This document shows positions 286-48,735 of a DNA stretch of 64,000 nt, one piece after another; the first letter of the stretch is position 1; the number at the start of each line of letters is the position of its first letter. The DNA is from Anthoceros angustus (taxonomy: Eukaryota; Plantae; Anthocerotophyta). The translations under genes and the position numbers were made by a program. The notes beneath the pieces were generated by a model. That model ran no database searches and had not been told where the DNA came from. It worked only from the letters and a program-made list of their open reading frames with translations. Location: the NCBI GenBank assembly GCA_010909165.1, contig MU008163.1, positions 1,364,001-1,428,000 of the forward strand, given 5' to 3'.

Positions 286-1692
286 GGAGGCAACACCAAA
301 ATCGACTATCCAGTTGAAGGCGGGCCGACCACTGGGATCGGAGGATGACTTTCCGGACGAGGAATTGGTGGCAGCAGTGGAGACACAGGAGGAGGAGCGC
401 AGTCTGAAGAACCCCAAACTTGTGGACAGCGCAACCGTAGCAGAAGCGGAGAAGGGGAGCGGACGTAGAGGACGGCCCACCTATGCGGAGCTGGAACGGT
501 ACCTGTGGGAGATGGAGATTCCAAAGGAGTTAAACCGTGCCCAACAACAGGCCTTCGTACATTACGCTCGGCCCTTCAGGATGTACAATGGATGTATCTT
601 TAAGGTGGGACCGGACGGTGTGGAGCGTAGGTACCTTCAACAGGCAGAAACAGAGATAGTCATAAAAGGGATGCACGAAGGCCTGGGCGGTGGTCATTAT
701 GTTGCACAGGTCACCACCAAGAAAATCTTGGAGGCCGGATACTGGTGGCCCACCATGTATGGCGAAACGCACCAGTTTGTAAAAAGATGTGATGCTTGTC
801 AGCGGATCGGGAAGCCGACCCCCACGATGCAATGGCCGCTGGTGCCCATACTCGCACTAGCACCGTTTGAGAAATGGGGAATCGACTTCGTCGGACCTAT
901 CTGACCTGACGACACACATAGAAGAGGTACATCCTGGTGGCAACGGACTAATGCGGTGGGTGGAGGCGGCGGCAACAAGGACGGACTCTGCAAGTACAGT
1001 GGCAAAGTTCCTCTATGAGAACATCATCACGCGGTATGGGTGCACGTTGCAGTTGGTAAGTGATAGGGGAACTCATTTCCTCAATGATGTGATAACTGCA
1101 ATGACGGACTATTTCGGTATAAACCATCGCAAGATGGCTCCATACAACCCGAAGGCCAATGGGTTAACGGAGAAGACTAACGGACTTATGTGTCGCATCC
1201 TGAATAAGCTCACGATTAACTATGCGCACGACTGGGATACTAAGCTACCATCCGCGCTATGGGCCTTCAGGACGGCGGAGAAGGTAACTACGCAACGAAC
1301 TTCGTATTACTTAACCTATGGACACTCGCCGGTTATGCCCGTGGAGTTTGAGGTACCAACGCTCCGAGTCATGATGGAGGGACGCTTAATGATGAAGAAA
1401 GCCAGCTGGGCGGCTAGGGTTTGTCCGGCCTCGAGGAGGAGGAGGCGCAGATGTAATGCAATCGGTACAAAACCAGCGGAAGCTATGGCACGACCGGCGA
1501 CTCCATAGCGGGAGTATGTGAAGGAGGGATCTAGCCCTTCTTTCTGACGATCGCCATATGCACTTCCGGGCAAGCTTCACTTACGATGGATGGGCCTTAC
1601 CGGTAGTGCGGTCTCGAATGGGTCCGTTCGACTCCGTGATTAGATGGTGAATCGCTGCCCACAAATGGGTGGTGAAGAAGTATCATGCTTAG
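286..1692 (+). pseudogene. pol: Ty3/Gypsy pol, integrase region (H2C2 zinc finger, rve core, GPY/F domain), frameshifted; no chromodomain
   Basis: HEGLGGGH...GYWWPTMY...CDACQR (H2C2); PFEKWGIDFVGPI, LVSDRGTHFLN, YNPKANGLTEKTNG (DDE core); KLHLRWMG(P)YR near 1572-1600; ends ...KKYHA-stop at ~1692. Confidence 0.95.
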
Positions 1693-1714
1693 TGTTGGCG
1701 AGACGCCAATGTAT

Positions 1715-1726
1715 GAGAAGGGAGTA
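1715..1726 (+). promoter_or_regulatory. Polypurine tract of Gypsy family A
   Basis: GAGAAGGGAGTA about 22 bp after the integrase stop and immediately before TGTGG at 1727. Confidence 0.85.
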
Positions 1727-2387
1727 TGTGGACAGCGGACTCCTTGGGGTTGGGAAATAAGCGGGGTTTGTTTTTTTCGTAGGTATGGAGTGTAAAATAA
1801 GGCGGAAAAGGAGGAATAAGCACGGACTCAGACTCGATGCTCGAGTACCGACTCCGGTAGGTAACGGACCCCGGTGCCACTCAAGGACCCCGAACACGCA
1901 ATGAGATCGGATAAGTCCGGACCCCACTCCGGGTCCGAATGGGATAAGTATGCCCAGTAAGGTAATTTAGAAGTTGGGGCGTGAGTTAGACAGAGCGGCG
2001 CCACGTGGACGGCCCTGAATGGAAGACGGGCATGCAGTAGGCCAGGACCATAGGGTTGCCAGTGGTCGTTATAGGTAGGTATTCACGCCTGCACGCTGGC
2101 GCGCACAAGGCCGAGTAGGCGGAAGCGCAGAGAGTAAGCCATGCAGCCTCGAGCCACGACAAATAAGAGCCACCTCCGCTACTTCCGACGGCGAGAGGCA
2201 AGGCGGAGGTCATTCTTCCAAGCAACTTCGCAGCGATCTTCGCATTCTCTCGCGCCGACACCCGCCTCCGGCGTTGTCTTTGATCGCCAGCACCTCGGCC
2301 GCCGACTTCGCGAGGGAAGCAACCGACGCCGCGCCAAGGAACGGACGATCATGGAGCCTCACACTCCAACAGCGGAGATGAGGGAAG

Positions 2388-5096
2388 ATGGGACCCAAGA
2401 AGGCGGCGGAGGTTTGGGAGCCATGGAGCTTGGTGGAGCGCAACATCGCCACCAAGCGCTACCCTACGTGGCTGGAGGAGGCGGGGATTGGTCAAGGAGT
2501 GGCACTGGACGCTTTCCTCGACACAAGCCGCCTAGTCCGGGAGTACGCCCGGAAGATGTTGGCAGCGGCCAACAAGGAGGTTCGCTCTAAGAGCCTTCGA
2601 GAGGACCCTAGGAGGTGGACCGTGGAGGTCCTGAGGGCGGTGTACAACCGGCCAGCGGAGGAAATTGGGGGCGTAGTCCCGGAACCTCTCAAGGCCAGGG
2701 GAAAGATAGAGGCGGCAAAGGCCGCCCTGCTGAAGCCAGGAACGCAACGAACAACCAACGGCCGGGTTGATGCCTGACTTGGCCGGACAGAGGGTGAGCA
2801 GGCCGTGATCATTGTCCATCGAACATGCTCACCAAGGTAGATCACCTTGGTGACACCGGTGTTCCCGCATGCGCCGCAGAGGAAGGAGGCGATCGGGAAG
2901 GATCATCTTCGCCAGATCAATCGTGAAGCTCAAGCCGAGGTGAGAAGCCTCCTCCGTCGGCGTTATCGCCGTTCTTAATTCATGTGGGCACGCGAACCTC
3001 CCAAGGAGGGAGAAGAGGAACGCAGAGGCGGGCCGCCACGGAGGCGTATGGAAGAGCGCGGAGGTGGAGGCCCGTCCGGCAAGCAAGAGGCGGAGGAAGA
3101 CGATCGAGGGAATCCTGACTCCATACGTCTGAGCGGACTCGCCACCGAGGGAAGTGTGGGAGGACATCCCCGCTTCCTCCTCCCGGTGCCCCCACCGAGC
3201 AAAGCAGGAGGTGGAGGAGGCGGGAGGCGTATGGAAGAGCGCGGAGGTGGAGGAAGCAAGCCATGCATCACCACCACCACGACGACGGCACGAGCCCCGA
3301 CGGACTGCCGGGACCAAGAGGCGGAAGGCGTGCCACCCGCCAACGCAAAGACCTGTGACGGCCTGCGTTGCCCCCGCCAACGAGTGGCAAGAAGTCGAGG
3401 AGGCGGAGGAGGCGGAAAGGGACGCCGCCCAAGGAGCGGAGGCCACAAGGAGGCGCATGGTGCCCCCACCGAGTCCTGTCTCCGACCGGGAGAGGCAAAA
3501 GGGTCAGCTCCCGAACCCCCTCACCCCCTCCGAGCCCCAGGAGAAAGAGGGCGGACAAGGAATTGGCGGCCAAGAGGGCCAAAGAAGGTGAGGCTCCGGA
3601 CCTCAGTACTCAGGACCTAAGGGTCCTGATTAGGTCCGGAGAGCCCAGTCCGGACTCACTCCGGGCTGCGGTATGGAGGTCCTTGGCGGACCGAGAGATG
3701 CCCGCCCCCACGACGGACTTCTTGGGGGCCTCACCGGTGGCAGCCGTGGAAGAGACACGGTCCTGCCACCCATGGACGGTATGCCTGGGACTCTACGGAC
3801 GGCCGAGAAGACCTGTGGAGGTGGAGGCCAAGGAGGCGATGGTGCTCCTCCGTGAGCATGGAGGCGCCCAGAGGCAAGGAAGAAGGCGGAAGTCCTCGGC
3901 CGCATCGAGGAAGGCGGAAGGCGGAGGCGGAGCGCGAGGTCCGAGCATTAGAAGACCGGACCAAGGTCCTCCACCGTGAGGAGGAGCGAGGGAGGAGGAG
4001 GCCCAAGCACGGGCCAAGCCTGCACAAGGAGGCGATGGTGCTCCTCCAGGAGCATGGAGGCGGCCCAGGAGGCAAGGAAGAAGGCGGAAGTCCTCGGCCG
4101 CATCGAGGAAGGGAAACGGCGGGAGGCGGAGCGCGAGGTCCGAGCGATTCAGGAAGACCGGACCAAGGTCCTCCAGCTGTGTGAGCAGCTGAGGCAGGCG
4201 CAGGAGGCCCAAGCACGGGCTGAAGATCTCTGCAGACGAAGGGGGGAGGCGCAGAAGGAGGCGGAGAGGGCTCGCGACCTGGCTGAGGCGGCCCGGCCGC
4301 CCAACATCGACCCGAGGCTCACCAAGGCCGAGGAGAAGCGGAAGCGGCGGTCGACCGGGATCACTATCGACGTGATCGAACCGTGGAGGGAGACGGGTCC
4401 GAACCTCTCAAGGCCGAACAAAGCAGAAGTGAGCAAGCATGCCGAGCCGTGAGGAGGAGCTGGAGGTCAAGACCGGAAATAGGGGACCTGTGGTGCACTG
4501 CAGGAGAAGGGGCGAGGGAGCCGGAGGATGAAGGATACCTTGAGCCGCAACTCCAAGACGACGGAAAGCAGGGGTTCTCAACGAGAGAATCCAAGACTTC
4601 GAGCGGAGATAGAGCGCCCAGCCGCTTGAAGACGGAGGAGAATAGGCGACCCAAGGAGTTCGACGCCGCGAGGCCGCAGCAGCAGAGGTGGAGGAAGCCG
4701 AGTCGACGGGGATACCGCCCGCCTGGAGAAGGAAGTGGCGACCGGAAAGGATAAACGGAGGGAAGAAAGCGCTGGAGGAGAACGCCGAGCACCTCTGGCG
4801 GAGGGTGAGCTCGGCTCCATGGCCAAAGAATCATGAGCCGGAACGACGGAGGAGGAGAACGCCGAAAGAAGGCCGCAGGAGGTGGAGGCCGCTTTGGTGG
4901 CATCGAGGAGTCCGCACTGCAGGAGGTGGAGGCCCAAGGAGGCGGCCAGGCCGGACAACATGCCCACCGCCGAGCACCTCGGAGGGAATACCGGTGCCCG
5001 GCCCATGTGGAGGAGGCCAACAAGTCGATTCCGACTTTGCCTACTACCACGCAGAGCTCCTCAAGGCTGGAGGTCTTGCGCCACCCAGGCAGGTGA
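2388..5096 (+). pseudogene. LTR-internal sense ORF of family A: conserved N-terminal domain, low-complexity linker, E/R/A-rich coiled-coil region; frameshifted, end approximate
   Basis: MGPKKAAEVWEPWSLVERNIATKRYP... (2388), ALSPFLIHV at ~2960-2986, coiled-coil-like EAAQEARKKAEVLGRIEEGKRREAEREVRAIQEDRTKVLQ (ORF 3976..4452). Matching peptides are present in the solo copy. Confidence 0.7.
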
Positions 5097-5369
5097 GCGG
5101 ACTTCCGTAAGGGCTCAAGGAGGAGCGAGGGAGGAAGGACCCGGGATGCAGCCCACGGGACCCTAGGAGCTACTGCTTGATGACACAGCAGCAGGGAGAG
5201 CAGGAGGAGCCGGACGGAAGAAGGGTCAGACCTGAGGTAAGCACTCTGCACCTCCGCACGGAAGGAAGGGAGGAGGGCCCTTGGGAGGCCGTGGAAGGGG
5301 CGCAACCGGGCACTCGGGAACCAAGGGAGGCTGGGATGAGCCGTGATCGCCCGTGAGGAGGCAAAACCA

Positions 5370-7345
5370 GAGCGGGTCCGGACTTTGTCCGGACTCGAGG
5401 AAGGTTGGGCCCAAGACCGGACCCCGAGGCAAGTCCGGCCCTCAAGGAAGTCCGACTTAGAGGTCCAGATTTAGTGACGAGACCGACCCCGAGGTCCTGA
5501 CCTGTGGAAGGGTTGGGCCCAGAAGACCGGACCCCAGAGGCAAGTCCGGACCCCGAGGTCCGAACTCCGTAAGGGCTCAAGGAGGAGGAGGCCGGACCCG
5601 GAGGAAGAAGGCCGGACCTAGAGGTCCGGACTCCGGAGTCGAGACGGGGTCCTGAGGTCCAGACTGGAGTGGGGAGAGCCACCATCACCCAGCAGATCCA
5701 TCTTGAGGCTGCAGGGCCCGCCAGAGATAAGAGAGGAGGGAGGAGGACTTAGTGGTGGCCGTTGTCGAGGCCGCAGCAGGAGGCGGAGCGAGGTCCGGAC
5801 CTGTGGTGCACTGCAGGAGAGGTAGGGGTCCCGCCTCGCGGATCATCCGATTGGGTGCGCCGCAGTCGTCAGGGCTCGGCTTTGGGCCGCCGGTGCCAAG
5901 ACGGAATCAGGGGCCATCCCAGCCCCACCACCGACGGCGGAGATAGGAGGAATAGGGAGAATAGTAGGCGGCCGATTAGGTCCGGACTCGAGGAAGGTTG
6001 GGCCCAGGCCGGACGGAGGAATAGAGGTGTAATAAAGGCGCCGACCTTCGGCGTAGTATAAGAGGGCTGAGGTTGCTCTGAGTAAAGCATCTTTCTCTTG
6101 GTGTTGATGCGTCTTCTGGCAAGCTCTTGGGTGCCTTCTTGTTAACGCGAGTCCCGAGTCATCGAAAGCAGCCGACCGAGAGACCGATTAAGGTCTTAGT
6201 GATGACCCTAACGTGTGGTGGTGTGTGCGGAAGCGGCGCTTAGGGACCCTTGCTCGTCAGGCGGTGGCGGCCGATTAGGTCCGGACCGAGTCGAGACGGG
6301 GTCCCGAGGTCCGGACTCGAGGAAGGCCGGACCTAGAGGTCCGGACTCGAGTCGAGACGGGGTCCCGAGGTCCGGACTCGAGGAAGGGAGGAGGAGAGCC
6401 ACCGATCACCCAGATCCATCTCTTGGAGGGCTGCTGCGAGGCCCGAGATAAGAGGAGGAGGAGGACTTAGTGGTGGCCGCCGTTGTCGAGGCCGCAGCAG
6501 GAGGCCGGACCCCGAGGAGAGGTAGGGGTCCCGCCTCGCGGATCATCCGATTGGGTGCGCATGATCGTCGAGCTCGGCTTTGGGCGCGGTGCCAAGGCAG
6601 ATCGGGGGCCATCCGGCCCATGTGGAGGAGGCAAAACCAGAGCGGAGATAGGAGGAATAGGGAGAATAGTAGGCGGCCGATTAGGTCCGGACCCCGGAGG
6701 AACTCGGGAGGCGGAGGAATAGAGGTGTAATAAAGGCGCCGACCTTGGTAGTATAAGAGGGCCGAGGTCGCCTCGAGTAAAGCATCTTTCTCTTGGTGTT
6801 GATGCGTCTTGGCGAGCTCTTGGGTGCCTTCTTGTTAGCAGTCTGAGTCAGCGGTGGCGGCCGGAGGCCGATTAAGGTCTTAGTGAGACCCTAACGTGTG
6901 GTGGTGTGTGCGGAAGCGGCGCTTAGGGACCCTTGCTCGTCAGGCGGTGGCCCAGCGTTGGGCGGGCCGGGCAGTGAGCGGAGGAACTCGGGAGGCGGAG
7001 CGAGGTCCGGACTTAGAGGCCCGGCAGAGCTACGAAGGAGGTCCGGACCGCATAGCCACCCGCGCTTTTCCCAAGGACGATGAGTGTAGTAAGTAGGGTG
7101 AGAGGAACGGACTAGATGGATGAGTGACGAACTTGAACGACGGAGGAGGCCGGACCACGAGGTCCGGACTTAGAGGTCCGGACTTAGAGGCCCAAGCACG
7201 GGCCCTGGTGAACGCTATGCGGGTAGTTAGGTGTGAAACGATAAATAGGCGTGTTGAGACTGAACGGACCCTAAGTAAGGTGAGGAACGATTGAAACGTG
7301 GCAAACGGAGCTACCATTCTCTTGGCGGACCTAGAGGTCCGGACT
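5370..7345 (+). repeat. Dense array of the palindromic motif (G)GTCCGGAC, often followed by CTCGAG or TAGAGG, in the distal family A LTR
   Basis: Many copies such as GAGGTCCGGACTCGAG and GAGGTCCGGACTTAGAGG; counterpart at ~20530-20760 includes tandem GTCCGGACTGTG units. Confidence 0.8.
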
Positions 7346-7499
7346 CACTACAACGACACGGATTGCTTGGCGGTGGCCATCGTGAAAGTCCCGCCACACA
7401 TAGCAACCACATCCTTGTGCTGCTCCGAAACTTAGCCAACTCCCGACCTACAACGACATGATACGTTCATAGGCCCTGCCCCTACGAAGGTAGGCCCAC

Positions 7500-9959
7500 T
7501 GTGGTGACCACATGGGTACTCAGACCCCCTCGAAAAGGAGTGTTTTTTTTGTTTTGTGTTTAAGTTGTGAGAATCGTGTGGAGTTGGAATGTGAAGTAGG
7601 TTAGGAAATAAGAAAAGTCTACTAGAGCCTAGTAGGAGGAAGAGAGTCTAGTCCTGATCCTGGACAGAACCTCGGAGGGTTGGCTGCTCGACCGGTTGCT
7701 AACGCGGTTGCTAGAGCCGTTGCTACAGGACTGCTGTTATGATGAACCGACTTTGGGGTCTGCGTGGTAGCAACCAAGTCGGAGTTATTTTCCGATAAAT
7801 TCGGAAAACCTATTTGGGCGAAATCACAGGGAAATACCCGAACGGGAAGTAACGGGGGGTCCTATTAGCAATTAAGCCCAGCGGCGGGAAGTGACGAGGA
7901 GTATCTTCATGAATCTAAGCGATGAAGATGGCGCCACCGAATCTGATCTGCGGGTCTGAGACGAGCGGACGCTGACGGGGCAGTGTCGCGCTGAGTCATG
8001 AAGGTACCGGTAGCGACAATCGCGCCAAGAACGGCCGAATTTGTTCTGAGTAGCATGCTCGGGAGGATGCGGCGGTGGCTGGAAGCCGGGCAGGGAGCCG
8101 TATGCTGAGCCGGCGGCAACACCCAAGTTACGGTCGGTGGAAGGAGCCAGAGGTGACGGAGCAAATTCCGGCATGAAGGTCCGTGGAGAACGCTCAAGAT
8201 GCAGGTGACCTTAACGAGTGAGCAGGCGCGGTGCAAGTTCTGCCCCAACAATGGTGGGAAGTAATCTGGCTGTGCAGCTCCTGGAGGAGGCTGGGCGGGC
8301 GGTTCAGGTGCTGCGACTGGTGCCGCAGGAAGCTGGGAAGAGCACGGTGAATTGGATAGGGCCAGGTGAAGTGGCTGTAGGAACTGTCCGCAAGATTGGT
8401 GAAAAAGTGGGGTGTGGTCGGGACAGGGCACGGACTGGTGGCACGCACCCTGGAGAAGCTTTCTGAGGAATGTCCTGGAAAACATAGTGATTCTTGTAAC
8501 TAGAGAAGCGGGGAACGTGGTCACAGCCATAAGGGGTCGCTGGGCATGCCGGGAGTAGCCGGGCTGGAACAGGAGTAACACGATGGGAGAGACAGGCCTG
8601 GAATAATCAACCGAAGTGACGCCAGAAGCTGCGGATAGAGGCTGAGACGAAGTGCACCAGGAGTCACTGTCTAACCGTGGTTGCAGGATACACCCTCCAG
8701 GCCTTACACAACTGAGGTGGGTTGGAAAGCAGCGGCTGGCCTGAGCCGAGGCAGGCGACATGTGGCAGTCAGAGGATAAGAACGGGATTTCTATTCCAGG
8801 ATGGTGCCCGGCGCGGAAGCCGAACAGAAACGAGTGGAGGTTATGGTGCGGGTTGAATGAATCTGTGGTCCGAGGGTGGTCTGTTGTGTTTTACAAGTTG
8901 TCCTAAGGACAGAGAGGTGCCAAGCCGAGGGGACAAGACCACGAGTTAACCTTGCTGTATGAGGGTAATTGCAAGATTCCAGTCGGAGTAAATTAAGTCG
9001 GCCCCGCATGTTGAGGTCCTGCACGGGAGCCGAGCGAATTATGCCATAGGGGGATCCTCCAGTCAAGCAGGGTACCAGGGCTAAGCGGAAAATCCGGCGA
9101 GGAAGCATGGCTCCTAAGAAGACCACTCCGGTGGCCATTGAGGCCAGTACCACTGTCCAGTGGCCCAACATGGGCCAAGCAGGAGGCACAAGCTGTCATT
9201 GCTCCCACATTGTCTAGGGTGGAGAATGGCTGGGTCACCAACAAGCTGGATCCCGAGCTGGCTGGATTAGCCAAGTGGATCCTGTGCTCTCAGCTCACTA
9301 AGAAGCTGGACCACATTGCTGACCATTTTCTTGTCTTTCTCTATGAGGTGGTAAGAGGGTCCAAGATAGATTGGGCCAGGATGTTCTATGACATAGCATG
9401 CAAGGAGAGGGACCACTTTACCCTACCATCACCCAGTCCCTCCGCTCTATCTCCCTCTTAATCCACGTCTTCGACCATGCCAAGTTGCTGGGGGGAATGG
9501 AGATGATCTCAACCTTTCACTCCTGGAAGCCTGTGTTTGAGAGGAGGAAGCCCAAAGAGGAGTCAGAGGACGAAGCCATCTCCAGTGGTACTGGGAGTGA
9601 AGATGAAAAGTCTGAAGTGTCCATGAAGAGGGATGTGGCTGTTGCTGAGGTAGCAGCCGCGGTTGCTAACAAAGCAACCGGGGTTGCTAAGACCCCAACA
9701 GGCACCAAGAGGGGTCGGACTGAGCAACAGGGGACTCCAACCACACCTAGAGCCACAAGAGCACGCACTGGGAGCTCACATGAACAAAAGCAGGACAAGG
9801 GAAAGGCCAGGGCAGCACCAGTTCCACTGGAGCCTGTGGCTGGGGAAGCCACAGGTCAACAGGAGGAATCAGCCCAACCCTTGGGCACAGTCGAGCTGAT
9901 CCGAGAAAGTGACTACCTGTTCAAGGAAGTGTCTTTCAAGTATACCCCGGAAGTTGTGG
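7500..9959 (+). mobile_element. Probable giant LTR of a second Gypsy family (B), truncated at 9959
   Basis: Begins TGTGG followed by a T-rich then purine-rich stretch like the family A LTR start, and contains a homologous ORF. No second terminus is present to confirm it. Confidence 0.5.
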
Positions 9960-9969
9960 TGCAACACTA
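9107..9969 (+). pseudogene. Family B ORF, homologous to the family A and C LTR ORFs; truncated by the 9960 junction
   Basis: MAPKK start at 9107; ENGWVT...FLVFLYEVVRGSKIDWARMFY...ALSP(L)LIHVF...LL...SWKP across ORFs 9138..9461 and 9398..10006. Confidence 0.75.
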
Positions 9970-11378: not shown

Positions 11379-14300
11379 TGTTTCTTGCTACCGCCTATTC
11401 CAACTCAATGGGATCGTGGCTAGAGCCCCTTGTGTGCTCCTTTGTTGGCTGTTCATCCCCTGAGAATAGTCCCGGCCCTCTTGGCCACGAGGCATATCCT
11501 CTACACATGCCTCCCTTACCTGCGGGAGGAGGATTTCACCCTCTAGCCCCTTGATCTCCAACTTTGGGGCTGGACTCCCCCATACTCTACCAATCCGCCA
11601 TGGGCGCCATCCCCCATGGCTACATCTCCTCTAGGAGTAGAGGCGTCAGCCTCCCCAACTCCCGCAGCGCCTTCCACCACCTCCGTCGCAACTCTCCTTA
11701 CAGGAGTAGGGCTACTCCCTACGCCGGTAGGTACCCTACCTACATCGCCAGGTCCCTCACCTACCATCACTTCCGGGTGTCTTTCTCCGACAAGATCTTT
11801 GGGGCTGGGAGCACCACTTGGGGCTCCTTATCCTGTGCTTCCCTCATCATCAAAACCTCTTCCCACTCCGATTCCTCGAGTCATCTCCACTTCCCTCGTC
11901 CTCAAAGTCTAAGGCCCTTGGCTCCACTTTCATAAGCTCCCTCCTGTCATCATCGTGGGGTCCCAACAATCTTCTCTTAATGAGGCGTGCTACCTCATTC
12001 TTGGCCTTGACAACCTTATTATGAAGGGTTGCCCCAACCTCTTATATTGCATCTCTAGTTCATCCGACTCCTTAGGCCATTCCCTTCTTTGCACCTACCC
12101 TTGTAGGCATTCCGCTCCAACGTCGGCTCTCCCACACGGAGGTGTAGAGCTACGTTCTCCACCGTGGCACCGTGAAGCTGCTGTGCCATCTTCTTTTGTA
12201 GGGCATAGTCCGCCTCGAATCTCCTCTTCCAATGACTAGCATTTGGTGCACCATGCCCTCCGCTTTCCTCTTCTCTCCTTCAGCCTTCACCTGTGGTTTT
12301 CGGCCTCCCATGATTTCTGAGCTCGTTCTAATTCCCTTTCCTTCTTCCCCAAACTACGGCGAGTTTCCATAAATCATCTTGGACACACCTACCTCCCATC
12401 GTAGGGTGTCCCTTTCTCTCCAATTCACTCACCTTGAGAGCAAGTGCTTGCTCGCCGCCCTTTGCTCTTTGGCCTTGCTCTCACTCTCTTTGGTCAGTAA
12501 GAGCTATTTCTAGTCTCCACTTTTGTGGTAGCCTCTTTAAACTTCGCATCCATTCCTCTCTCGCATCAATAGTCTTGAATGTGGCACTCAATCTATCCAC
12601 TTGCTCCCTCGGTCCTCGACCTCTGTTTGGATCCGTCGGCCTCCCCAACTCCAGCGCCTTCCACCACCTCGTCGCAACTCTCCTTACGGAGTAGGGCTAC
12701 TCACGCCGTGGGTACCCTACCTACATCGCTGTGTCCCTCACCTACCATCACTTGTGTCTTTCTCCGACAAGATCTTTGTGGGAGCACCACTTGGGGCTCC
12801 CTTATCCTGTGCTTCCCTCATCATCAAAACCTCTTCCCACTCCGATTCCTCGGAGTCATCTCCACTTCCCTCTTCTTCAAAGTCTAAGGCCCTCGGCTCC
12901 ACTTTCATAAGCTCCTTCCTGTCATCATCATGGGGCCCTAGCAGCCTTCTCTTAATGAGGCGTGCTACCTCGTTCTTGGCCTTGATAACCTTATTATGAA
13001 GGCTGACCCCCAACCTCTGATATTGCATCTCCAGCTCGTCTAGCTCTTTAGGCCATTCCCCTTCTTTGCACCTACCCTTGTAGGCATTCCGCTCAACGTC
13101 GGCTCTCCCACACGGAGGTGTAGAGCTACGTTCTCCACTGGCACCGTGAAGTGCTGTGCCATCTTCTTTTGTAGGGCATAGTCCGCCTCGAATCTCCTCT
13201 TCGAATGACTAGCATTTGGTGCACCATGCCCTCCGCTTTCCTCTTCTCTCCTTCAGCCTTCACCCACATGGTTTTCGGCCTCCCATGATTTCTGAGCTCG
13301 TTCTAATTCCCTTTCCTTCTTCCCCAAACTACGGCGAGTTTCCATAAATCATCTTGGACACACCCTACCTCCCATCGTAGGGTGTCCCTTTCTCTCCAAT
13401 TCACTCACCTTGAGAGCAAGTGCTTGCTCTCACTCTCTTTGGCTGTAAGAGCTATTTCTAGTCTCCACTTTTGTGGTAGCCTCTTCGCTTGCATCCATTC
13501 CTCTCTCGCATCAATAGTCTTGACAATGTGGCACTCAATCTATCCACTTGCTCCCTCGGTCCTCGACCTCTGTTTGGATCCGTCGGCCTCCACATGCCCA
13601 AAGCCCTCATTCTTTCTTCCAACTCCAACAACTTTGCCTCGGCCCTTGCAACTTCTTTGCTCCTAGCCTCTCCTTCTCGTGTTGCCTCTCGGGCCTTACT
13701 TGCCCTCAACTCTTCACAGCTTTCCACCAAGATACCAGCCATCCTTGTGGCTTCCTTCACATCCACCTGCTCAAACGCCCACATAGCCGGACTAACTCCC
13801 CTAGCACTCCTAGTTCAGCCTCATGGCATGTGCTCCTATTATTCCATAACCCATGGAACCACATCCCCTACCATGGTTCCATCCGACTAGCCCCTCTAGG
13901 ATCCAGCCTCCTCCTAGGCACCGCCTTAGCATGTCCGCCCGTACTTGTCCCGGTGCCTCACCCACCGTGTAGGGACCTCTGTCGGCCTCCTTCTCTTGGT
14001 GCCCGTTTGCACCTATCTCCGTAGATCCCCGACTTACATCCGTAGGGATCTCCTAAGAACACCTTTCTCCTCTTCCATGTCGAGGTTTTGGCCCTCCTCC
14101 GGCATAGGGGCCTCTTCCTCCCTCACGGGATTTCTCCTTCTACCTTCATTCGCCTGCGACGATTCGGCTCCTCATCAAGGTTTATCTCCAACTCCTCTTC
14201 CTCTTCTTCATCATAGACTCGGACTTGGGTCCCTTTCCTAGCCTCTCCCAACTGCTCTATCGACCTAAAGGGCCTTCTCATGGCAAGAGGGGTGGGCACC

Positions 14301-15090
14301 TCCTCCGTAGGCACCAACTCTACCATATCAAAGGGCGCCCACGAGTCGGACAATTCCTCAACACTCAATAACCCCTCCACTCCCCACAACTGGACCAAGT
14401 AAGTGGACAAGTAGCATAGCCTGGGAGACTCCGCATCATGGCTGTTAGGCTTCAAAATCTTCTCCCTATGATAGACGTAAGCATTGTACATAATATTCCC
14501 CCAGTTCGGCTTCGCACCCTGTGACACTTTCCACACAAAAACCAGCAAGGCATCGCTAAAGTAGGTCTTCCGCTGATGATTAATAAGACCGATGACCACT
14601 TTGGCGAAGGTTCGCCACTTGAATTCCTTGATGGCCACTGTGGGCCAGCCATTCTTCGTTTTGCACTCTCCCCGTGTAACATGGTGGCCCTTCCTAAGTG
14701 AAATGGGAGCCATCTTCTTCCCATCCTTAGCCTTTTCGTTATCACAATCCCATCTCCCTCTTGGTAGGTCGCCCATAAACGCCTTATACTCGAACCGCCC
14801 AAAGACTGGGTCCGTTCTCGCGTTCCGCTCTGGAAGGGCTGCCAATTGCCTTGGAGTCCGGCAGAGGCTCACATAGCACTTCTCCACAAGCTTGAGATTG
14901 TCAGAGGCCCAATGGCGGCCATATGCCCACCGGAGTCAGATGTTCTCCTCGCCCATACCGAAAATCAACGGATCCTGTGAGCACACTTGGCCCACAAAAC
15001 ACTCAAACATAGGCATGTTGATTTGGCGGATCCTCGGCGTGGCCTCTCTTCTTCTTCTCTTCCCTTTGTTAGGGGTAGGTGTCTTCCCAT
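11379..15090 (-). pseudogene. Family C long ORF (conserved domain, coiled coil, acidic tracts), interrupted near its 3' end by Copia-1
   Basis: MGKTPTPNKGKRRRREAT start (clean in ORF 50348..50728); KNGWPT...LLVFVWKVSQGAKPNWGNIMY...YLSTYLVQLW..EGLL...SWAP (14123..14887); coiled coil EELRASKAREATREGEARSKEVARAEAKLLELEERMRAL (13458..13784). Confidence 0.75.
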
Positions 15091-18829: not shown

Positions 18830-19581
18830 CTCCCCTCCATGACATCTCCAACATAGTGTTACCGGATTTCAATGTATTTTGTGCGGGCATGAGATTTGGG
18901 ATTTGCCTCAAGAGCTAGAGTGACATATTGTCAAAGGTAATTTAGGTGACTACTACTCCTGGTCAAGATCCTTGAGGAAGCTACGCTCCCACTCTGCCTT
19001 CTTTGAGGCGTCGCTCAGAGCTTTATACTTTGCCTATGTGGAGGAAAGAGCTATGGAGATTGCTTTTTAAATGACCAATTCACCATGGCTGAGGAAAGAA
19101 CAGCGTATGGGTAGAAATGGGTTTCTCCGACAAAAAGGGGTTATGGCTAAAATCCCGTCTTTTTTTGGGCGAAAACGCGTGTTTGCTTTTTCCTAGGCTT
19201 TTTTTGAGGGGTTTTGCTAATTTAAATGTGGTGTTCAAACCTATGGCATCACATCTTGCATGTTCATTTGGTCACAATGTGCCACATCCATGGTTGGGCA
19301 CCGCGATTTTGATGGGGTGATGTGGTGGGAGGAAGACCTCGGGCCCCCAAGACTACTCTCTAGTGGCCACATTTATCCCACTATCATTGAGCACAAAAGG
19401 CTTTGTCCCATGAGACTTACATTTAATAAGAAACCAGCTTCTAGGGCACGAGCACACTCCTTCTCACACACCCAAACCCCTCAAACAACTAGGGTCACCA
19501 CAACTCACTCTCAAGCAAGAGCCACGCCCCCTCGCACCTGGTCCGCCAACAGATAACGGCATACGCTACTACCATTGTAGG

Positions 19582-22500
19582 TGTGGCGCGACTTTCGATG
19601 GCCAGTAGGCGCCATCCGTGTCGTTGTAGGAAGAAGTCCGCTCCCAAGGGAATGATAGGCTCCGCTGCTGCTTCGTGATTCCTACCGCACTTAGCGCCTG
19701 CTCACCCCAACGCACACATACTCCTAACTACTCAACGCTCACCGTGACAGCCCGTGATGGCTAAACGCTTAGGGACCTGTCAAGGCCAGATCGCTCACAT
19801 TCACACACACATCCACCCTTCCTCTCTCCTCACGCTACACTCATCGCCTTAGAAAAGACGCTGGTTACACAACCCCGACCTCCTCCGCTCGCTGGCCTCT
19901 CCGTCCGGCTCAGACGCCTCCCGAGTTCCTCCGCCTCCTCACGCCACACCGTCGGCCGGGTCGCGGCTCCGGACGAGCACGGGTCACCACCCTTCCCCGC
20001 ACACACCACAACACGCTAGGTCCGCCACTGTGACCGATCAATCTCCCCGAGCCGCCGTGCTCGCTGACTCAGACTCACGTTAGCAAGAAGACACACAAAG
20101 GTCTCGCAAGAACGCGATCAACACCAAGAGAAAGATGATTTATTGAGCGGCCTTAGCCCTCTTATACTACGCCAAGGTCGCCTTTATTACACCTCTATTC
20201 GAGCCGAGGGCCACCTGGTGCCTAACCACCGCCTACTACCCCGCTTATTCCGCCTATCGCTTGGGGCCGGGATGGCCCTCATTCCTTCTTGGCACCGGCG
20301 GCCCAAAGCCGAGCTCGTCGCGCACCCAATCGGATGATCCGCGAGGCGGACCCTTCCTCTTCCCGAGGGTCTGCCAGCGCGCCACCGGCGGCCTCGACAA
20401 CGGCCACCACCAAGTCTTCCTCGCCTCCCTCTTCTCTCTCCGGCCTCGCGCAAGGGCCTCCAAGGGCCGGATCCGGGCTGGTGGACCGTGGCTCTCCCCA
20501 CTCCCGAGTTTGGACCTCGTGACTGCCTCGACCGAGTCCGGACCTCTAGGTCCGGCCTTCCTCCGGGTCCGGCCTCCGGCCCGGCCGAGTCCGGCCCCTG
20601 GGACCGGATTGCCTGGGTCCGGCCTCGACCCAACCCTTCCTCGGGTCCGGACTGTGGTCCGGACTGTGGTCCGGACTACCAGAGTCCTGGATCCCTAAGT
20701 CCGGACCTCGGGGTCGGACCTCGGGATCCGGCCTTTCCTCGAGTCGGGACAAAGTCCGACCTCGTGCCTCGGGCATGCCTCCTCACCGGCTGGTCACGGG
20801 TTCATCCACCGAGCCTCCTTGGTTCCCGAATGCCCGGTTGCACCCTTTCCTTCCTCTCCAAGATCCTCCCTCGTCCTTCCATGCGAGGGTGCCGAGGCTT
20901 ACCTCCTGTGGCGCCTTCCTCCTCCGCCTCCCCGCTTCCTCCTCGCCACTGCCACACAAACAGCCCTAGGACTCCTGCCAGGCTGCCCCGGTCCGCCCTC
21001 TCTCGCCCTTCCATCCTTCCGAAGTCCACCTCCGCCTAGGGTGGCGCAGACCTCCAGAGCCTTGAGGAGCTCTGGTAGGCGGTCGGAATCGACTTGTCAA
21101 TCGCCTCCTCCACATGAGCCCGAGCACCTGACTTCTCCTCCTCGGAGGTGCTCCAGAATCGAGCAGATCGCCCACCACCGCCTGCCTCGGGCTGCTTACC
21201 ATGAGGCGGGCGGACTTGAGGCCGCCAAGGCCGCCTCCTACTCTTGCAACCTTCGCCGCCGACGCTCTCCTCCTCCTCCGGTTCCTCCGCCCGCTTATGG
21301 GCCATGGAGCCGAGCTCCCTTCGCCTCGCAACCGGACGAGCAATCGACCTTCCTCCAAAGGCTTTCTTCCCCTCGTCTATTCTTTCCCGAGGTCCTCCAC
21401 TTCCTTCTCCAGGCGGGCGGTATCCCGTCAGGCTCACGGCTTCCGCCACATCCCGCCGCAACCTTGCGACGCCGAACTCCTTGCCGCCTATTCTCCTCCG
21501 TCTTCAAGCGGAGCTGGAGGCCCACCTCTCGCTCGAAGTCTTGGATTCTCTCTGAGAACCCCCGCCGCCTGATGCATCTTGGAGTTGCAACCCAAGGTGT
21601 CCTTGTCCTCCAGCCTCCGCCGCCTTCTTCTACCTCCCGCACTGCACTCGAGGTCCCCAATCTCCCGTGCTGGCCTCCGATGCCTCCTCACGGCTCGGCC
21701 GTGCTTGCTCCATGACCACTTGCTCGGCCTTCGATTGGCCGGCCTGCCGCCTCCACCGGCCCGATCACGGAGTGATCGCGATCGGCCGCCGTGGCCTCCG
21801 CCTCCTGGCCACCTTCACCGAGCCTCCTTGGCTCGTCCGCCTGGCCCAGATCCCGCCTGCCTCGCTTGCGCCCAAGGCCCTTCGCCTCGCCCGCCTCGCA
21901 GAGGTCCTCCGCCCGCTGGCCTCCTGGCCTCCGCCTCCTCCTCCACTGAAGGAATTTGGTCCGGTCCTTGCGGATGGACGGACCTCCCTCTCCGCCTCGG
22001 CGTTTTCCTTCCTCAATCCCGCCGAGAGCTTCCTTCCTTCTCGCCTCCTGGCTCCTCCAACCGCCTCCGGAGGAGTACCATGCGCCCGGTGGCTTCCACC
22101 TCCGGGCCTTCTCGCCATCCCGCAGATTCTGTGAGCATACCGGCCCATGACGGTAGCTGTGACCCTGTGTTTCCTCCACGGCCGCCGTGAGGCTCCCACA
22201 AAGTCCGTGGCGGGCGGCATCTCACAGTCCGTCAAGGACCTCCATACCGCAGCCGAGTAAGTCCGACTGGGTTCTCCGACCCAATCAGACCCTTAGGTCC
22301 CGAGGCCGAGCTGAGCTTCCTCCTTGGCCCTTTTGGCGCGAGCTCCTTCTCGCCCTTTTCCTCCACAGGGCTCGGCGGAGGTGATGGAGTCCGGAGCACG
22401 CCTTTGCCCCTTCACAGCCGGCGGGACCCGGCTCTGGATCGGTGCTGCCGGTGTCCTCCTGCTCACAGGCGTCCTTCGCCCCTCCTCTGCTTCCTCGCTT

Positions 22501-24590
22501 CTTGCCACTCGGCGGGGAAGATCTTGCTGGCCGGGGGTGCGTTGGTAGCCGTGGTCTTGCGCCTCCCTCGTCCGGCGGGCTCTCACCGAGTGATGGCCGT
22601 GGCGGGCCGCTGGGGTCGGGCCGCCGGATCGGCTGCCTGGTTGGGGCACCAAGGAGGAGGCGGAATTGCTTCCCATACTGGGTGGTGAGGGGTCCGCGTG
22701 CGATGGAGTCCGAATCCTCCCGCCTCCTCCCGAGTCCGCTTGGTTTTCACGACTGCCTCCTCCGGCCTTGCCCGCCTCCACTTCCGGAGGGCCTCCAGCC
22801 TTTTCCGAGCGCCGCCAAGCTCTCCTTCCCGAGGAGTTCAAATGCCCCCATACATGGATCGTATGGGGATGCCCCATGGAAGGCTTCGCCCCGAGCTATG
22901 AGCCTCGCTAAACCGGGCGAAGATAATCCTTCCTCCCGCCTCTTCCCCGGCTGCAGCAGAACACTAGATTATCACCAAGGTGATCCACCTTGGTGAGTAG
23001 GTTCCAGTGACAATGATCCGCCACCGCCTCGACTCGACCGTCCAATGTGCCTGACATCGCCCAACCACAGTGGTCCGCTGGCCCTGTGCCTTAGCATCGC
23101 CGTGGTCGGCCCTATCTTCCCTTCGCCTTGAGGGGCCCGCACCACTCCCTCTTCCTCCTTGGGCGGTAGGCCGCCTCAGACCTCCAAGGTCCATCGCCTT
23201 GGGTCCTCCGGAGGTTCTTGACCGCACCTCCTTATTGACCGCCAAGATCTTCCGCAAACTCCCGACCAGAGTGACATCAAATGTCCGCCATTTGGAACAC
23301 ATCCAAATGCCACTCCCGCACCACTCCGCCTCGGAGCGAGCCCAAAGTCCGGATAGCGCCGGTCACAATGTTGCGCCCACAAGGTTCCATGGCTCCCAAA
23401 CTTCCGCTGGCTTTTGGGTGCCATCGCCTTCTCCTCCTTGGTTGCGGTAGCCGCTTGTAGAGGCTGGCAGCGCGTTGCGCCTTCTTCCTCCGCTGCAAGG
23501 TGAACACATTAGATTATCACCAAGGTGATCCACCTTGGTGAGTAGGTTCCAGTGAATGATCCGCCACCGCCTCGACTCGACCGTCCAACAGTGCCTGGAT
23601 ATCGCCCAACCACAGGTCCGCTGCCCTGTGCCTTAGCATCGCCGTGGTCGGCCCTATCTTCCCTTCGAGGGGCCCGCACCACTCTTCCTCCTTGGGCGGT
23701 AGGCCGCCTCAGACCTCCAAGGTCCATCGCCTTGGTCCTTGAGGTTCTTGACCGCACCTCCTTGACCGCCAAGATCTTCCGCAAACTCCCGACCAGAGTG
23801 ACATCACAAATGTCCGCACCATTTGAACACATCCAAATGCCACTCCCGCACTAATTCTCCGCCTCGGAGCGAGCCCAAAGTCCGGATAGCGCCGGTCACA
23901 ATGTTGCGCCCACAAGGTTCCATGGCTCCCAAACTTCCGCTGGCTTTTGGGTGCCATCGCCTTCTCCTCCTTGGAGCCGCTTGTCTGAGACCGGGCACGT
24001 TGCGCCTTCGCCGCTGCTCACGCCCGACCAACGGTGAGCCGTGCAAGACGCCCGAGTGTCCCACGAGATACCGCCAGAGCCGGATCATGAGCGCAAGAGA
24101 TCGCGAGAATTGTCTCGAGGTCACAACAAATGACCTTCTTCCGCGACCACGCCGGAGTAACCGTGAGGGCGCCTCTTCCACATGCTGGCCGAGTGCATGG
24201 CTTACTCCCCACGCCACAGACTGGCCTTACCCCACTGCTGCCCTACGCCAGCGCGTGAATACCGCTATAACGGCCTCGCAAGGTTACGGCCCCGACTCAC
24301 GCATGCCCGCCCCTCCACTGTGGTCGCCCACGCCGCGCTTAGTCCGTCCTTACGCCCAACTTCTAAGTTACTTTCATGATTTATCCCGCCTCGGTCCCGG
24401 AGTGGGTCGGACTTACCCGTTACCTTGTCGCCGCCATCGAGGTCTAAGTACCTCACTCCGAGTCAGTATACTCCGAGTGCCCCGAGTGCTAACCGGCTTA
24501 TTTCCTCCTTTTCGCCTCATTTTATCCTTCGCTCCCACAAAAACAAAATCCTACCTAATTTCTAACCCCTGTGGAAGTCCGTAGTCCACG
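19582..24590 (-). mobile_element. Solo LTR of Gypsy family A (diverged subfamily), 5009 bp, with 5-bp TSD GTAGG
   Basis: GTAGG at 19577-19581 and 24591-24595; termini TGTGG.../...GTCCACG; the empty site ACCATTGTAGGTCTACA is seen at ~54845 and ~55967; no pol, PBS or PPT inside. Confidence 0.92.
21036..23957 (-). pseudogene. LTR-internal ORF in the family A solo LTR (frameshifted, N-terminal part duplicated)
   Basis: MAPK...EVWEPWNLVGRNIVT, RKILAVNKEVRSR, DPRRWTLEV, SPRWITLV, IHVWG, GIEEGKRR, HVEEAIDKSIPTAYQSSSRL all match peptides in 2388-5096. Confidence 0.7.
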
Positions 24591-26747
24591 GTAGGTCTAC
24601 ACCTACAAGGGTAGGTCGCCCAGTACACACACATGTAGGGACCCCTAATGTACAGCGTGACTTCCTTTACTCCATAATTTTGAGGACTTGGCCCAGCCTC
24701 CACCCCTCGGTTGATGCAGTTGGGACCCCTCCCTTAGGCTCGACTTGGGCCTTCTCCTAACTCCTAAACTCTACTCCTCCAACATTCAACCCCACACCAT
24801 CCAAAATCTCAACTTAACTCATCACCATCCTCAACATTCAACTCAATGCATCATATTTGACACTCGATGACTCAATACTTATTCTCCTAGTCTAACCTCA
24901 CTTCAAGCTCAGCTGACTTGCCTTTCTACTTCTAGCGCCTAGGGGTCGCCTACAAGCCAACAAGTTCTTCCTTGGGCAAGTTGCTATGAGTTTGCACCAG
25001 ACAGAGTATCTCTAGGAGTCTTTCCCCGCGCCCCTCAAGTCGAGGTTCTCAGGCACCACCACGCACCCAAAGCAAAGCAATTTTACAACAACCATTCACA
25101 AGAGGAGCAACTGCGGAGGCACTACTCGCGGAGCAAGCCCTCCGCCAAGCACTCCGACCATAGCCACTTTCCCCCTCTACGGACATTTTGTCACTGTACC
25201 GACAACGGCACCTCACATGAAGCAAGACACTCACCACGCAAGGGAAGCGCAATCACGGTGCTTTATTTCTCGAACTAGTCCTCTTATATAAGACATATAC
25301 ATATGGCCTCTCTTGGGCCGCGCCTCCCCCCTCCTTTACTGACTTCCGCTACACAATCTAATATCGCTTGACCTTTCCAAAAGTCTAATTAAGAGCCTCC
25401 TCGGGAACCACAATTGCTAGTGGTCTTTGAATAATCCTATAAACCTCACCCACTTGCAACCATCATGCCTTCCTCTTTAAGGCTCCCATCCTACAATAGT
25501 TCTAACCACAAAGCGGTTCCTAAGGCATCAATTACAATTCTTAGCGAGCTAGCCACTTTGGAGTTCTTCAAGACCCTAGGGGTCTTACCCATATCTCCCA
25601 CATGTTTTAACAAACATAGGCCATTTGATTTATGTCAAGACTTGACATCATGTGTGAGCACAAAGGAGAACAACACGAGAGCCTAGAATGCTTGAGTGTT
25701 CATTAAGTGAATAATAATATAAAGAGTATTGAAAATTATTTATATGTAAATAACCCTAAGTTACTATGTCTAGGTTACAATAAACAAGGCATATTTTAAT
25801 ACTCCCACATAACCTAGGCGATATCTGAATTGTGCCTAGCGTTAGGTAATTTGTCTCCCAGCGTAGAATCTCTTAAGTACGGCGCCATGTGTTGTTAGCA
25901 GTCGTAAACATAGCCTTTGCGATCATCCAACGAAAGAGTCCATGGCTACAAGGAGGCGGGCGCACTGTGAGGTGAGCAGGAAACACCGGTGCTCAAGAGA
26001 AAAGAAACGTGCCACAAGCCAACTGTAAATGCGGAGGAACATGGAGTGGAAAGCAGTTTAGTTTCCAACGGTGATGTCCGGTACGGATGGGAGATTGAGG
26101 GCCGGTCAGCGCCATAGTGAGAAACAAGTTCGAGGCGACTCAAGGCGGTGAAGAGGAGCCCATCGTAGAGCTATTGGAGAAAAGCTACTGGACCCTCTTA
26201 GAAGAATGAGGGTCCATTGGCTAAATCTTTGTGAACATGCATTTGCCGAGGCGAAGAGGAAGAGAAGGGAAGGAAGAGTATTTGCGAAAAGTCGTGAGCA
26301 AGGACTATGAAGAAGGAAGCTCCACAAAATGAAGGACGGAGAAAACCGCGACTAGGTAAGGCAAGACAAATTCATCCGTGCTTATACTTGGGCAGGCGGT
26401 GTGGGAGGACTGTAAACTGACCAACTGTGAACTTGTAGTGTGCCACATGGCACATCGATGGTCCAGTGGAAAGAAGGCGGCCTGTGATATGCAAACCTAA
26501 ATTAAGAGCAGCTTGAAGACCTGGGGACTTAGGTCCCTACCCCCCCCCCACACCCATCAGGTCAGACGATCACCTATCACCTACAATACCCTTAGGCGGA
26601 TATTTGAGCAGTCCCAAGGACTCCACATGCATAGTGTGTTTACGCTTGGGAAGCGCCCGTCAATACATCGCAATGTTTTCAGCGGTTGGGACATATTCAA
26701 CCTTGATTACTCCTCCGGATACGGTGTCTAGGATACGGTGGTGCTTA

Positions 26748-27670
26748 ATCTCGAAATGTTTGGTTCTTGCATAAGCAGCAAACCTAAATTGGTTACCAAA
26801 AGCTAAGTCAAACCTAAATCTCGAAATGTTTGGTTCTTGCATGAAAGCAGCAAACCTAAATTGGTTACCAAAGCTGAATCAAACCTAAATCTCGAAATGT
26901 GTGGTTCTTGCATGAAAGCGGCAAACCTATATCTTGGTAGAAAAGGCCAAAAGTCGAGGATCCTTTGAGGTAACGATAAATTCTTTTAACGACTGCCCGG
27001 TGCATTCGTCCGGCTTTTCTAAGAACTATGAGGCGACTGGCTGAAAAGTCTGTGGGCAAGGACTATGAAGAAGGGAAGCTCCCACAAAATGACGAAGGAT
27101 GTAGAAAACACGACTAGGTAAGGCAAAGACAAATTCATCCGTGCTTATACTTGGGCAAAGTGTGTGGGAGGATCAAACTCGACCAAGCTGTGAACTTGTA
27201 GGTGCATGGCACATCGATGGTCCAGTGGAAAAGGAAGCAAAGTATATGCAACCTAAATTAAGAGGCTTGAAGACACAGGGACTTAGGTCCCTACCCCCCC
27301 ACACCCATCAGTCGACGATCACCTATCACCTACAATACCCTTAGAGCGGATAGTCAAGTCCCCGAGTCCCAAGGACTTCGTGTATAGTGTGTTTCGCTAA
27401 GCGCCAAATACATCGCCAATGTTTTCAGTTGGGACATATTCAACCTTGATTACTCCTCCGGATACGGTGTCTAGGATACGGTGGTGCTTAATCTCGAAAT
27501 GTTTGGTTCTTGCATGAAAACCAAACCTAAATTGGTTACCAAAACTAAATCCAAACCTAAATCAAAATATTTGGTTCTTGCATGAAAACGGCAAACCTAA
27601 ATTGGTTACCAAAGCTGAATCCAAACCTAAATCTCGAAATGTGGTTCTTGCATGAAAGCGGCAAACCTAT
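26748..27670. repeat. ~72-bp tandem repeats in the Copia-1 RT/RNase H junction (two blocks, ~26748-26930 and ~27490-27670)
   Basis: Unit TCTCGAAATGTTTGGTTCTTGCATGAAAACAGCAAACCTAAATTGGTTACCAAA...CCAAACCTAAA, about 2.5 copies per block; also at ~58120-58300. Confidence 0.85.
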
Positions 27671-29281: not shown

Positions 29282-29371
29282 GAAGAAGAAGAAGAAGAAG
29301 AAGAAGAAGAAGAAGAAGAAGAAGAAGAAGAAGAAGAAGAAGAAGAAGAAGAAGAAGAAAAAGAAGAAGAA
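29282..29371. repeat. (GAA)n microsatellite, poly-Ser on the Copia-1 coding strand just before the protease motif
   Basis: 26 perfect GAA, one AAA, then 3 GAA. Confidence 0.97.
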
Positions 29372-38069: not shown

Positions 38070-38070
38070 C

Positions 38071-48600: not shown

Positions 48601-48735
48601 TTTTGGCCAAAATTTTGCTCTGCTACAAGTCATCAATATCCACGTCGAGATCGTCCGACCCCACCATTGCAAGTAATTTTAATGATGGGTTATGCCGTGG
48701 TTGACACGCCTTCTTGCATTGTTTTGCGGAAAGAG
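42700..48735 (-). pseudogene. gag-pol: Copia-2 gag-pol, frameshifted; gag/PR region duplicated (~45565-47155 / 47156-48735)
   Basis: RNase H ADADYAGD..SRKSVSGY...ALSSTESEY...HSRTKHI; RT LLLYVDDL; integrase YWAEAILTATYLLNRLPT...RKKLDPKA; protease NWYLDGATSHIC. Confidence 0.93.

Follow-up and report, generated by a model that had tools for sequence, protein, structure and literature searches.

The 64,000-nucleotide stretch of Anthoceros angustus DNA analyzed here (assembly GCA_010909165.1, contig MU008163.1, positions 1,364,001 to 1,428,000 of the forward strand; hereafter the window) consists largely of nested retroelements and is noisy with indels. Close to its left end, the pol gene of a Ty3/Gypsy retrotransposon is followed by a polypurine tract (PPT) and a 5-kb unit, almost certainly the 3' long terminal repeat (LTR) of the element (copy A), which likely carries a protein-coding gene of its own. 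A diverged second copy (copy B) stands alone as a solo LTR. The window begins inside pol; the 5' LTR and the primer binding site (PBS) lie outside it, and no full element with both LTRs is in view. Feature coordinates are collected in Table 1.

Table 1. Features of the LTR copies, the putative gene and the target sites, in window positions (TSD, target site duplication; pN/pS, ratio of nonsynonymous to synonymous changes per site).
Feature	Positions	Strand	Remarks
3' end of pol, comprising RNase H-integrase linker and frameshifted integrase; chromodomain absent	305-1692	+	Stop TAG 1690-1692; Pfam Integrase_H2C2 and rve, tblastn with relatives' pol, translation
LTR-proximal module: TTGGCGAGACGC motif, polypurine tract, TA	1695-1726	+	
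3' LTR (copy A), TGTGG...CCACA	1727-7398	+	Not flanked by a TSD; not followed by a PBS
TATA-like TTATAG, then CT-rich leader; putative promoter of the LTR gene	2069-2074	+	About 340 nt into the LTR; in both copies
Putative LTR gene, N-terminal globular region	2388-3050	+	pN/pS 0.49; weak link to relatives' Athila ORF1/Transposase_32-like family
Putative LTR gene, P/E/R-rich linker	3050-3545	+	pN/pS 1.33 (51 codons); no sign of constraint
Putative LTR gene, second conserved region (AVWRSL)	3545-3830	+	pN/pS 0.28 (47 codons); strongest constraint
Putative LTR gene, E/R/A/K-rich, likely coiled coil	3830-5100	+	pN/pS 0.56 (178 codons); composition, rough heptad score; holds a 196-nt local duplicate; 3' end uncertain
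Non-coding stretch rich in repeated CCGGAC/TCCGGA, upstream of main promoter	5360-6050	+	
Conserved TGTAATAAA, TATA-like GTATAAG (6057), CATCTTTCTCTT; putative main LTR promoter	6027-6090	+	Near-invariant in the A/B alignment
Local tandem duplicate of 5604-6268	6319-6951	+	Probably an assembly artefact
TSD GTAGG, left of copy B	19577-19581	+	
Solo LTR (copy B), CGTGG...CCACA	19582-24590	-	Homologous gene, about 23425 to 21020
TSD GTAGG, right of copy B	24591-24595	+	
Empty target site, single GTAGG	54850-54854	+	
Second empty target site, single GTAGG	55973-55977	+	Inside a local duplicate

Results and Discussion

An earlier sequence-only reading had reported an integrase stop, then a PPT, then TGTGG at position 1727, and all of these are in place: behind the stop codon of pol, the tract GAGAAGGGAG occupies positions 1715-1724 and ends 2 nt ahead of the TG of the LTR. 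Its statement that the same sequence recurs elsewhere in the window needs correction in one respect. The second copy is flanked by GTAGG on both sides and two empty target sites exist, but it is a diverged sequence, with an aligned identity to copy A of 69-85% per segment (eight segments, sequencing error counted in) and a CG instead of a TG at its start. On account of this identity we assign the copies to two subfamilies. The inverted ends are short (5 bp) and read TGTGG/CCACA in copy A and, with one mismatch, CGTGG/CCACA in copy B. Both copies are homologous and collinear over their whole length, and the outermost 300 nt match at both ends (0/100 shuffles each). A terminal direct repeat was found within neither copy A nor copy B (scores reached by 22/100 and 4/100 shuffles), which is why a short-LTR element around a unique middle was rejected. 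An independent insertion at copy A was also rejected, no TSD being present there. Once the local tandem duplicates are discounted, the LTR measures approximately 4.5-4.8 kb, which falls within the sizes of long plant LTRs such as those of Ogre with 1.9-6.5 kb (PMC6431247).

The element ends in an integrase that is closest to proteins of Riccia sorocarpa (top five matches, 51-56%) and collinear with the reverse transcriptase-RNase H-integrase proteins of this species, the pol stop following directly after the C-terminal motif of a GPY/F-type end. Because the integrase is the last domain of pol, ends in this manner and is not followed by a chromodomain, we classify the element as a non-chromovirus Ty3/Gypsy. 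An integrase scan of metagenomes provided relatives, of which the best 80 of 262 loci were used; the end of the integrase was located in 60 of them. In a tree of the window, 73 of the 80 loci and nine proteins (short matches left out, some rows unlabelled), the window integrase groups with Riccia rows (8 rows, 100/99) and shares one 16-row clade (100/93) with the loci L003, L020 and L029. Judged by the integrase without regard to the source, a liverwort would be the probable host. The tree gives no direction of layout change.

L003, assembled as a circle, represents a complete element with integrase, PPT, a 742-aa sense open reading frame (ORF), a second PPT, a 1-kb TG...CA LTR and the PBS-like site TGGCGCCGCTGCCGGGGA, which we take to be of the Asp tRNA type that marks the Athila clade. 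Its extra ORF lies between the PPTs at 3757 and 6560, which are preceded by different motifs, and the internal type is common to L002, L005 and L042. A PPT behind the integrase, on which the sequence-only reading had relied, is no mark of an LTR by itself, because L003 has one and yet holds its ORF outside the 1-kb LTR. The case for an LTR rests instead on the solo copy with its TSD and on the context of the PPT. In the window this context matches the LTR-proximal PPT of L003 (0/200 shuffles) and not the internal one (143/200); for L029 the corresponding values are 0/200 and 41/200. A second copy of the PPT module was found neither inside copies A and B nor downstream in L029. The upstream motif of the module, picked after inspection of these sequences, occurs in four of the 80 loci, namely before the LTR in L003 and directly behind the integrase in L020, L025 and L029. 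Behind the module, L029 has an intact ORF of 630 aa, which is homologous to the internal ORF of L003 (E 1e-29) and encodes a globular N domain, an acidic linker and a coiled coil. In L020 the module is followed by a TATA box at about 340 nt, by a CT-rich leader and by the start of a homologous ORF (E 1e-15). The LTR ends of L020, L025 and L029 lie outside their contigs, and we infer the layout of these loci. The clade would then hold a single protein family in two arrangements, inside the element in L003 and presumably LTR-borne in L029, L020 and the window.

The view that the unit is an LTR and not internal sequence is thus upheld by the solo copy, homologous from end to end, by its TSD and the empty sites, and by the missing terminal direct repeats; we hold it with near certainty. 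Reasoning from the solo LTR, a full element would carry the gene twice.

Some observations concern the insertion sites. The right flank of copy A (7399-7510) is homologous to the target of copy B (55900-56020; score 42, 0/300 shuffles), a similarity that was spotted first and tested afterwards, and both copies inserted no further than about 65 nt from one and the same position on what resembles the 3' end of a related LTR. Two cases of this kind give a hint of insertion targeting. The target of copy B, TGTAGGTCTAC (54849-54859), is a near-palindrome. As it recurs twice in the downstream repeats of L029 (5445, 5695), the target was probably an LTR of the same clade. By eye, the LTR starts fold as a short hairpin of the TGTGGA...TCCACA type (copy B 24590-24570 on the minus strand, L029 2525-2546, L020 approximately 2626-2645).

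Within the LTR, the sequence-only reading had proposed a sense frame of roughly 2.7 kb (2388 to about 5096). An open frame of that length is not present, the longest stop-free sense run being 213 aa in copy A and 200 aa in copy B. At least nine frame switches over 2713 nt are needed in copy A and at least eight over 2406 nt in copy B, compared to four over 1227 nt in the integrase. Because the integrase of the element shows an equal break rate, sequencing noise can explain the interruptions, with decay of the gene as the alternative. The antisense strand needs as few switches (eight in A, seven in B), and the count has no say on the strand. In copy A a stop near 2838 (TAG) stands opposite TGG in both reads of copy B. 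What stands of the proposed frame is a coding signal. Triplet periodicity is restricted to 2388-5100, with z values of 6.6 (A) and 3.3 (B) as against -1.3 to +1.3 in eight other LTR segments, and pN/pS is lowered.

The comparison of nonsynonymous and synonymous changes between the copies, suggested by the sequence-only reading as a check, was carried out with a codon model for which seven ORFs from elsewhere than the LTR had served as training set. The model assigned the frames in one copy, and changes were counted against the other copy. With the frames of copy A, pN/pS is 0.57 (368 codons; 0/500 permutations) and with those of copy B 0.68 (370 codons; 9/500), the permutation nulls lying at 0.87-0.89. 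Neutral simulation through the same pipeline gave 0.94±0.08 with a minimum of 0.79 in 60 runs. Four shifted frames of the ORF reached 0.77-0.98 and the antisense strand 0.80. Among seven non-ORF controls, five were at 0.84-0.99 and two at 0.72 and 0.67 (43/500 and 12/500). Three earlier selection tests had been flat, the mismatch-spacing tests and the best-frame test being uninformative. Taken as a comparison of sequences, the values indicate that a sense gene was likely under purifying selection while the two subfamilies diverged, and the presence of a once-selected gene in the LTR is very probable.

Without duplicates the gene would comprise approximately 800-840 codons, its 3' end being uncertain (5100-5240). 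Constraint is unevenly distributed (Table 1); in the second conserved region mismatches are 0.19/0.06/0.32 by codon position, and tblastn finds the region in copy B with E 4e-7. Just past the gene a splice-donor-like GGTAAG is kept in both copies (5236, 20903), and the gene may have a further exon. A transmembrane helix was not seen, the top 19-residue Kyte-Doolittle means being 0.96 (A), 1.35 (B) and 0.84-1.30 in six relatives, with frameshifts limiting the test in A and B; the usual threshold for a membrane helix is approximately 1.6. An env-like membrane protein was rejected on these means.

Two promoter-like sites frame the gene. At a distance equal to that of the TATA-like element in the window, L020 has GATATATAAG ahead of the homologous ORF. 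The block 6027-6090 is the best-conserved non-coding block between the copies, and TGTAA ahead of a TATA box is a described LTR motif, with which the block fits an LTR core promoter (PMC3601003). Because the putative main promoter lies there, about 4.3 kb including the gene would fall in U3. An AATAAA at 6031 overlaps the TGTAA motif and is a candidate poly(A) signal of the gene. Upstream of this block CCGGAC is enriched 5-8 fold, with 19 occurrences versus 3.3 expected in 5100-6050 of copy A and 14 versus 2.7 expected in copy B. TCCGGA is enriched in the pol of the relatives too, which tempers the array as a target motif. In each family examined a different short motif is over-represented (AGCGCT, AGCAAC, TCCGGA), partly in coding sequence (L003, window 7399-9960, L020, L029).

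To place the protein, a profile of four relatives' ORFs was used, which matches the N-terminal region of the LTR gene with E ~0.01 among 858 tiles; the scan picks out only this LTR region and one other extra ORF. Against the relatives the region reaches z 3.4 at a matching distance from the start codon and an hhalign probability of 16.6. The L029 domain resembles ATHILA and Transposase_32 clusters (Atlas score 0.92, 27/30 matches), and the ORF of L001 matches an Athila-type family with E 2.5e-4, which falls short of the cut-off. The queries made from the window protein were partly out of frame, which makes its missing Pfam match a weak negative. With such queries no homologue was found by word-index search of the 5.8-billion set (131-aa piece and 4-row alignment) or by phmmer among 1.84 billion representatives (223-aa read-through), and the best Atlas score was 0.89 with low recognition. 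In viral contigs no relatives of the ORF or the integrase were found. An AlphaFold model of the window piece has a pLDDT of 39. For the model of the L029 domain the top fold match is VANC21, the only listed match spanning the whole domain (191/228 residues); it is below the reliable range and concerns the model of L029, not that of the window protein. Foldseek gave no match of the L029 model in PDB or BFVD, also on a second look, and there was no PDB sequence match. By kinship the LTR gene is probably an accessory gene of the Athila ORF1/Transposase_32 type. A role as trans-acting regulator is plausible on these weak leads, and action in anti-silencing can be put forward tentatively by analogy.

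Comparison with known systems shows which parts of the arrangement are familiar. Like the Athila-type 3' extra ORF (ATHILA ORF1 PF03078, Transposase_32 PF20167), the gene would follow pol in sense on the genomic RNA and combine globular, disordered and coiled-coil parts, and the proteins of L029 and L001 resemble these families. Athila-type ORFs are, however, known as internal ORFs located ahead of the PPT (PMC6317226, PMC7264820, PMC11728184), whereas here the PPT precedes the gene and the solo LTR retains it. The window protein matches neither PF03078 nor PF20167 and shows no membrane helix. The reviews consulted assign plant extra ORFs to the internal part of the element (PMC7264820, PMC6317226, PMC11728184, PMC11963269, PMC1142308). 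Ogre combines long LTRs with extra ORFs, often with a plant mobile domain (PMD; PMC6431247, PMC6317226), but these ORFs are internal, the long LTRs are treated as non-coding, an additional RNase H (aRH) is present and the elements are described from angiosperms. In the window there is no space for an aRH after the integrase, the rest of pol lying outside, and Tat lineages without aRH exist (PMC10508981). Membership in Phygy, described as short, with NCGN target preference and without extra ORF (PMC6317226), was rejected in view of the TSD GTAGG and the 5-kb LTR with its gene.

A whole protein gene in the LTR, copied to both ends, is known from sag of mouse mammary tumour virus (MMTV), an ORF in the 3' LTR (PMC2119085). 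There it belongs to a retrovirus and encodes a membrane superantigen, here to a plant retrotransposon with about 800 codons, and sequence kinship would not be expected. The TRP28 ORFs of Retand and gene23 of maize Grande (PMC11963269, PMC7264820) are likewise 3' accessory genes and proposed regulators with nearby tandem repeats, in Grande with an own promoter, but they are antisense and located between pol and the 3' LTR. VANC of VANDAL elements (PMC5735166, PMC13547354) and the PMD proteins MAIN/MAIL1 (PMC5418596) share the globular domain and the coiled coil. According to PMC13547354, VANC is similar to MAIN/PMD, and oligomerisation via coiled coils is predicted for VANC as well as for proteins with the Athila domain. 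VANC is furthermore an accessory protein encoded by a transposable element that carries short repeated motifs in its non-coding DNA, to which the weak fold lead from the L029 model can be added. It differs in belonging to eudicot DNA transposons; for the protein described here, binding and demethylation would be predictions. In the literature accessible to our search, no description of a gene inside the LTR of a plant retrotransposon was found. Among viruses, nef of human immunodeficiency virus and bel2 of foamy viruses overlap U3.

The surroundings of the LTR copies bear on the quality of the sequence. Within five pairs of local tandem duplicates, mismatches amount to 2.3-7.1% and gaps to 2.2-5.1 per 100 nt, as expected of unpolished long reads. 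The duplicates inside the LTR copies (3829-4014/4025-4220 and 5604-6268/6319-6951 in A, 22937-23484/23478-24009 in B) are probably assembly artefacts. Many local tandem duplicates of 0.2-1.6 kb with 80-96% identity are scattered over the window, together with a larger repeat of 9960-30110 within 30110-63338. These are probably read-stitching artefacts, and copy counts in the window are therefore unreliable. Two further elements with extra ORFs lie at 9109-9960 (+) and approximately 11550-15050 (-), and further copies are located around 34-35 kb and 50 kb. Their extra ORFs are related to each other (E 5e-7; 0/1000 shuffles), and the one at 11550-15050 matches the relatives' ORF family (hhalign probability 65; z 7.7). 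Kinship of the LTR protein with both ORFs failed in direct comparison (814/1000 and 346/1000 shuffles). Two Copia elements (DUF4219, gag_pre-integrs, RVT_2, Pol_BBD) occupy 25608-31497 (-), with LTRs of approximately 200 nt, and 38068-49603 (-).

In summary of the above we favor, as the probable explanation, that a non-chromovirus Gypsy element has the unit as its LTR, with a likely accessory gene in U3, probably of the Athila ORF1/Transposase_32 type, which may act in trans on the chromatin of the element. In L003-like kin the ORF lies between the internal and the LTR-proximal PPT; here the LTR-proximal module would stand directly behind the integrase, and plus-strand priming ahead of the gene would copy it into both LTRs. 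Transcription of the gene would begin at a separate promoter, some 340 nt from the LTR start, by which any LTR could express it. The genomic RNA would start near 6085 and contain the gene once, after pol, as in Athila and other ordinary 3' extra ORFs. Recombination between LTRs would leave the gene behind in the solo LTR. A protein of this build, with globular N domain, linker, second domain and coiled coil but lacking a membrane helix, would be soluble and oligomeric. Its most likely action would be to bind the repeated CCGGAC next to the main promoter and counter silencing, as VANC does for VANDAL, a step that on its own we regard as doubtful.

An improbable alternative is that the gene is a decaying passenger, an ordinary 3' extra ORF swallowed by the LTR when the PPT module moved. 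It would have been selected earlier and have become defunct, either in the two copies or family-wide. The lack of any open frame above 213 aa, the TAG opposite TGG near 2838 and the weak constraint indicated by a dN/dS of 0.5-0.6 would agree with it. However, the integrase of the element is broken at an equal rate, pN/pS was lowered during the divergence of two subfamilies that each have the gene in the LTR, and the ORF of L029 is intact behind the same PPT module. Quite improbable, in our estimation, is a real LTR gene that is unrelated to Athila ORF1 and VANC or that serves particle assembly, RNA export or integration targeting. The missing homologues of the window protein in Pfam, the two large sequence sets and Atlas, the weakness of the profile link and the two insertions in homologous sequence point that way, whereas the four-ORF profile selects only this region and one other extra ORF, at a matching distance from the start codon, and the gene has an equal place behind the same PPT module.

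The genomic RNA might also start at the upstream promoter (~2100), which would leave U3 short and place the gene in an R or U5 of great length, with translation starting at the RNA 5' end like that of Ogre ORF1. The TATA-like element and CT-rich leader in copies A and B and L020 would be in accordance with this, but the best-conserved promoter-like block is at 6027-6090, minus-strand strong-stop DNA of more than 4 kb would presumably be needed and the order in L003 is pol-ORF-LTR, which makes such a start very improbable. That the unit is an independent non-autonomous or DNA element, or the junction an assembly chimera, is hardly credible. In favor of it are the noise and the numerous local duplicates of the window, the position of the 5' LTR and PBS outside it and the CG at the start of copy B; against it, copy A has no TSD, a PPT 2 nt ahead, inverted ends of only 5 bp and no terminal direct repeats, and the PPT-TG module follows the integrase in three independent relatives.

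Conclusion

The favored explanation, an accessory gene carried in the U3 of a Gypsy LTR, has consequences for how such elements are surveyed and how they persist. Plant extra ORFs have been surveyed between the LTRs and long LTRs treated as non-coding, by which design LTR-borne genes would be missed. The two layouts would show how a retrovirus-like U3 gene can arise via repositioning of a PPT module. What Athila-type accessory proteins do has long been asked, and intact relatives and a candidate target motif for anti-silencing are now at hand. The idea of solo LTRs as gene-delivery units is conjectural, solo LTRs being immobile by themselves; if they express the gene, recombination would not remove it. 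In a further-reaching version that we consider unlikely, a bryophyte Gypsy clade would have relocated an anti-silencing gene of VANC/PMD-like type to U3, so that the gene, a promoter for it and the binding sites of its product share one LTR. If true, each solo LTR would stay a self-contained source of the factor that keeps the family unsilenced, and the host's main route of retrotransposon deletion would leave the counter-defence in place.

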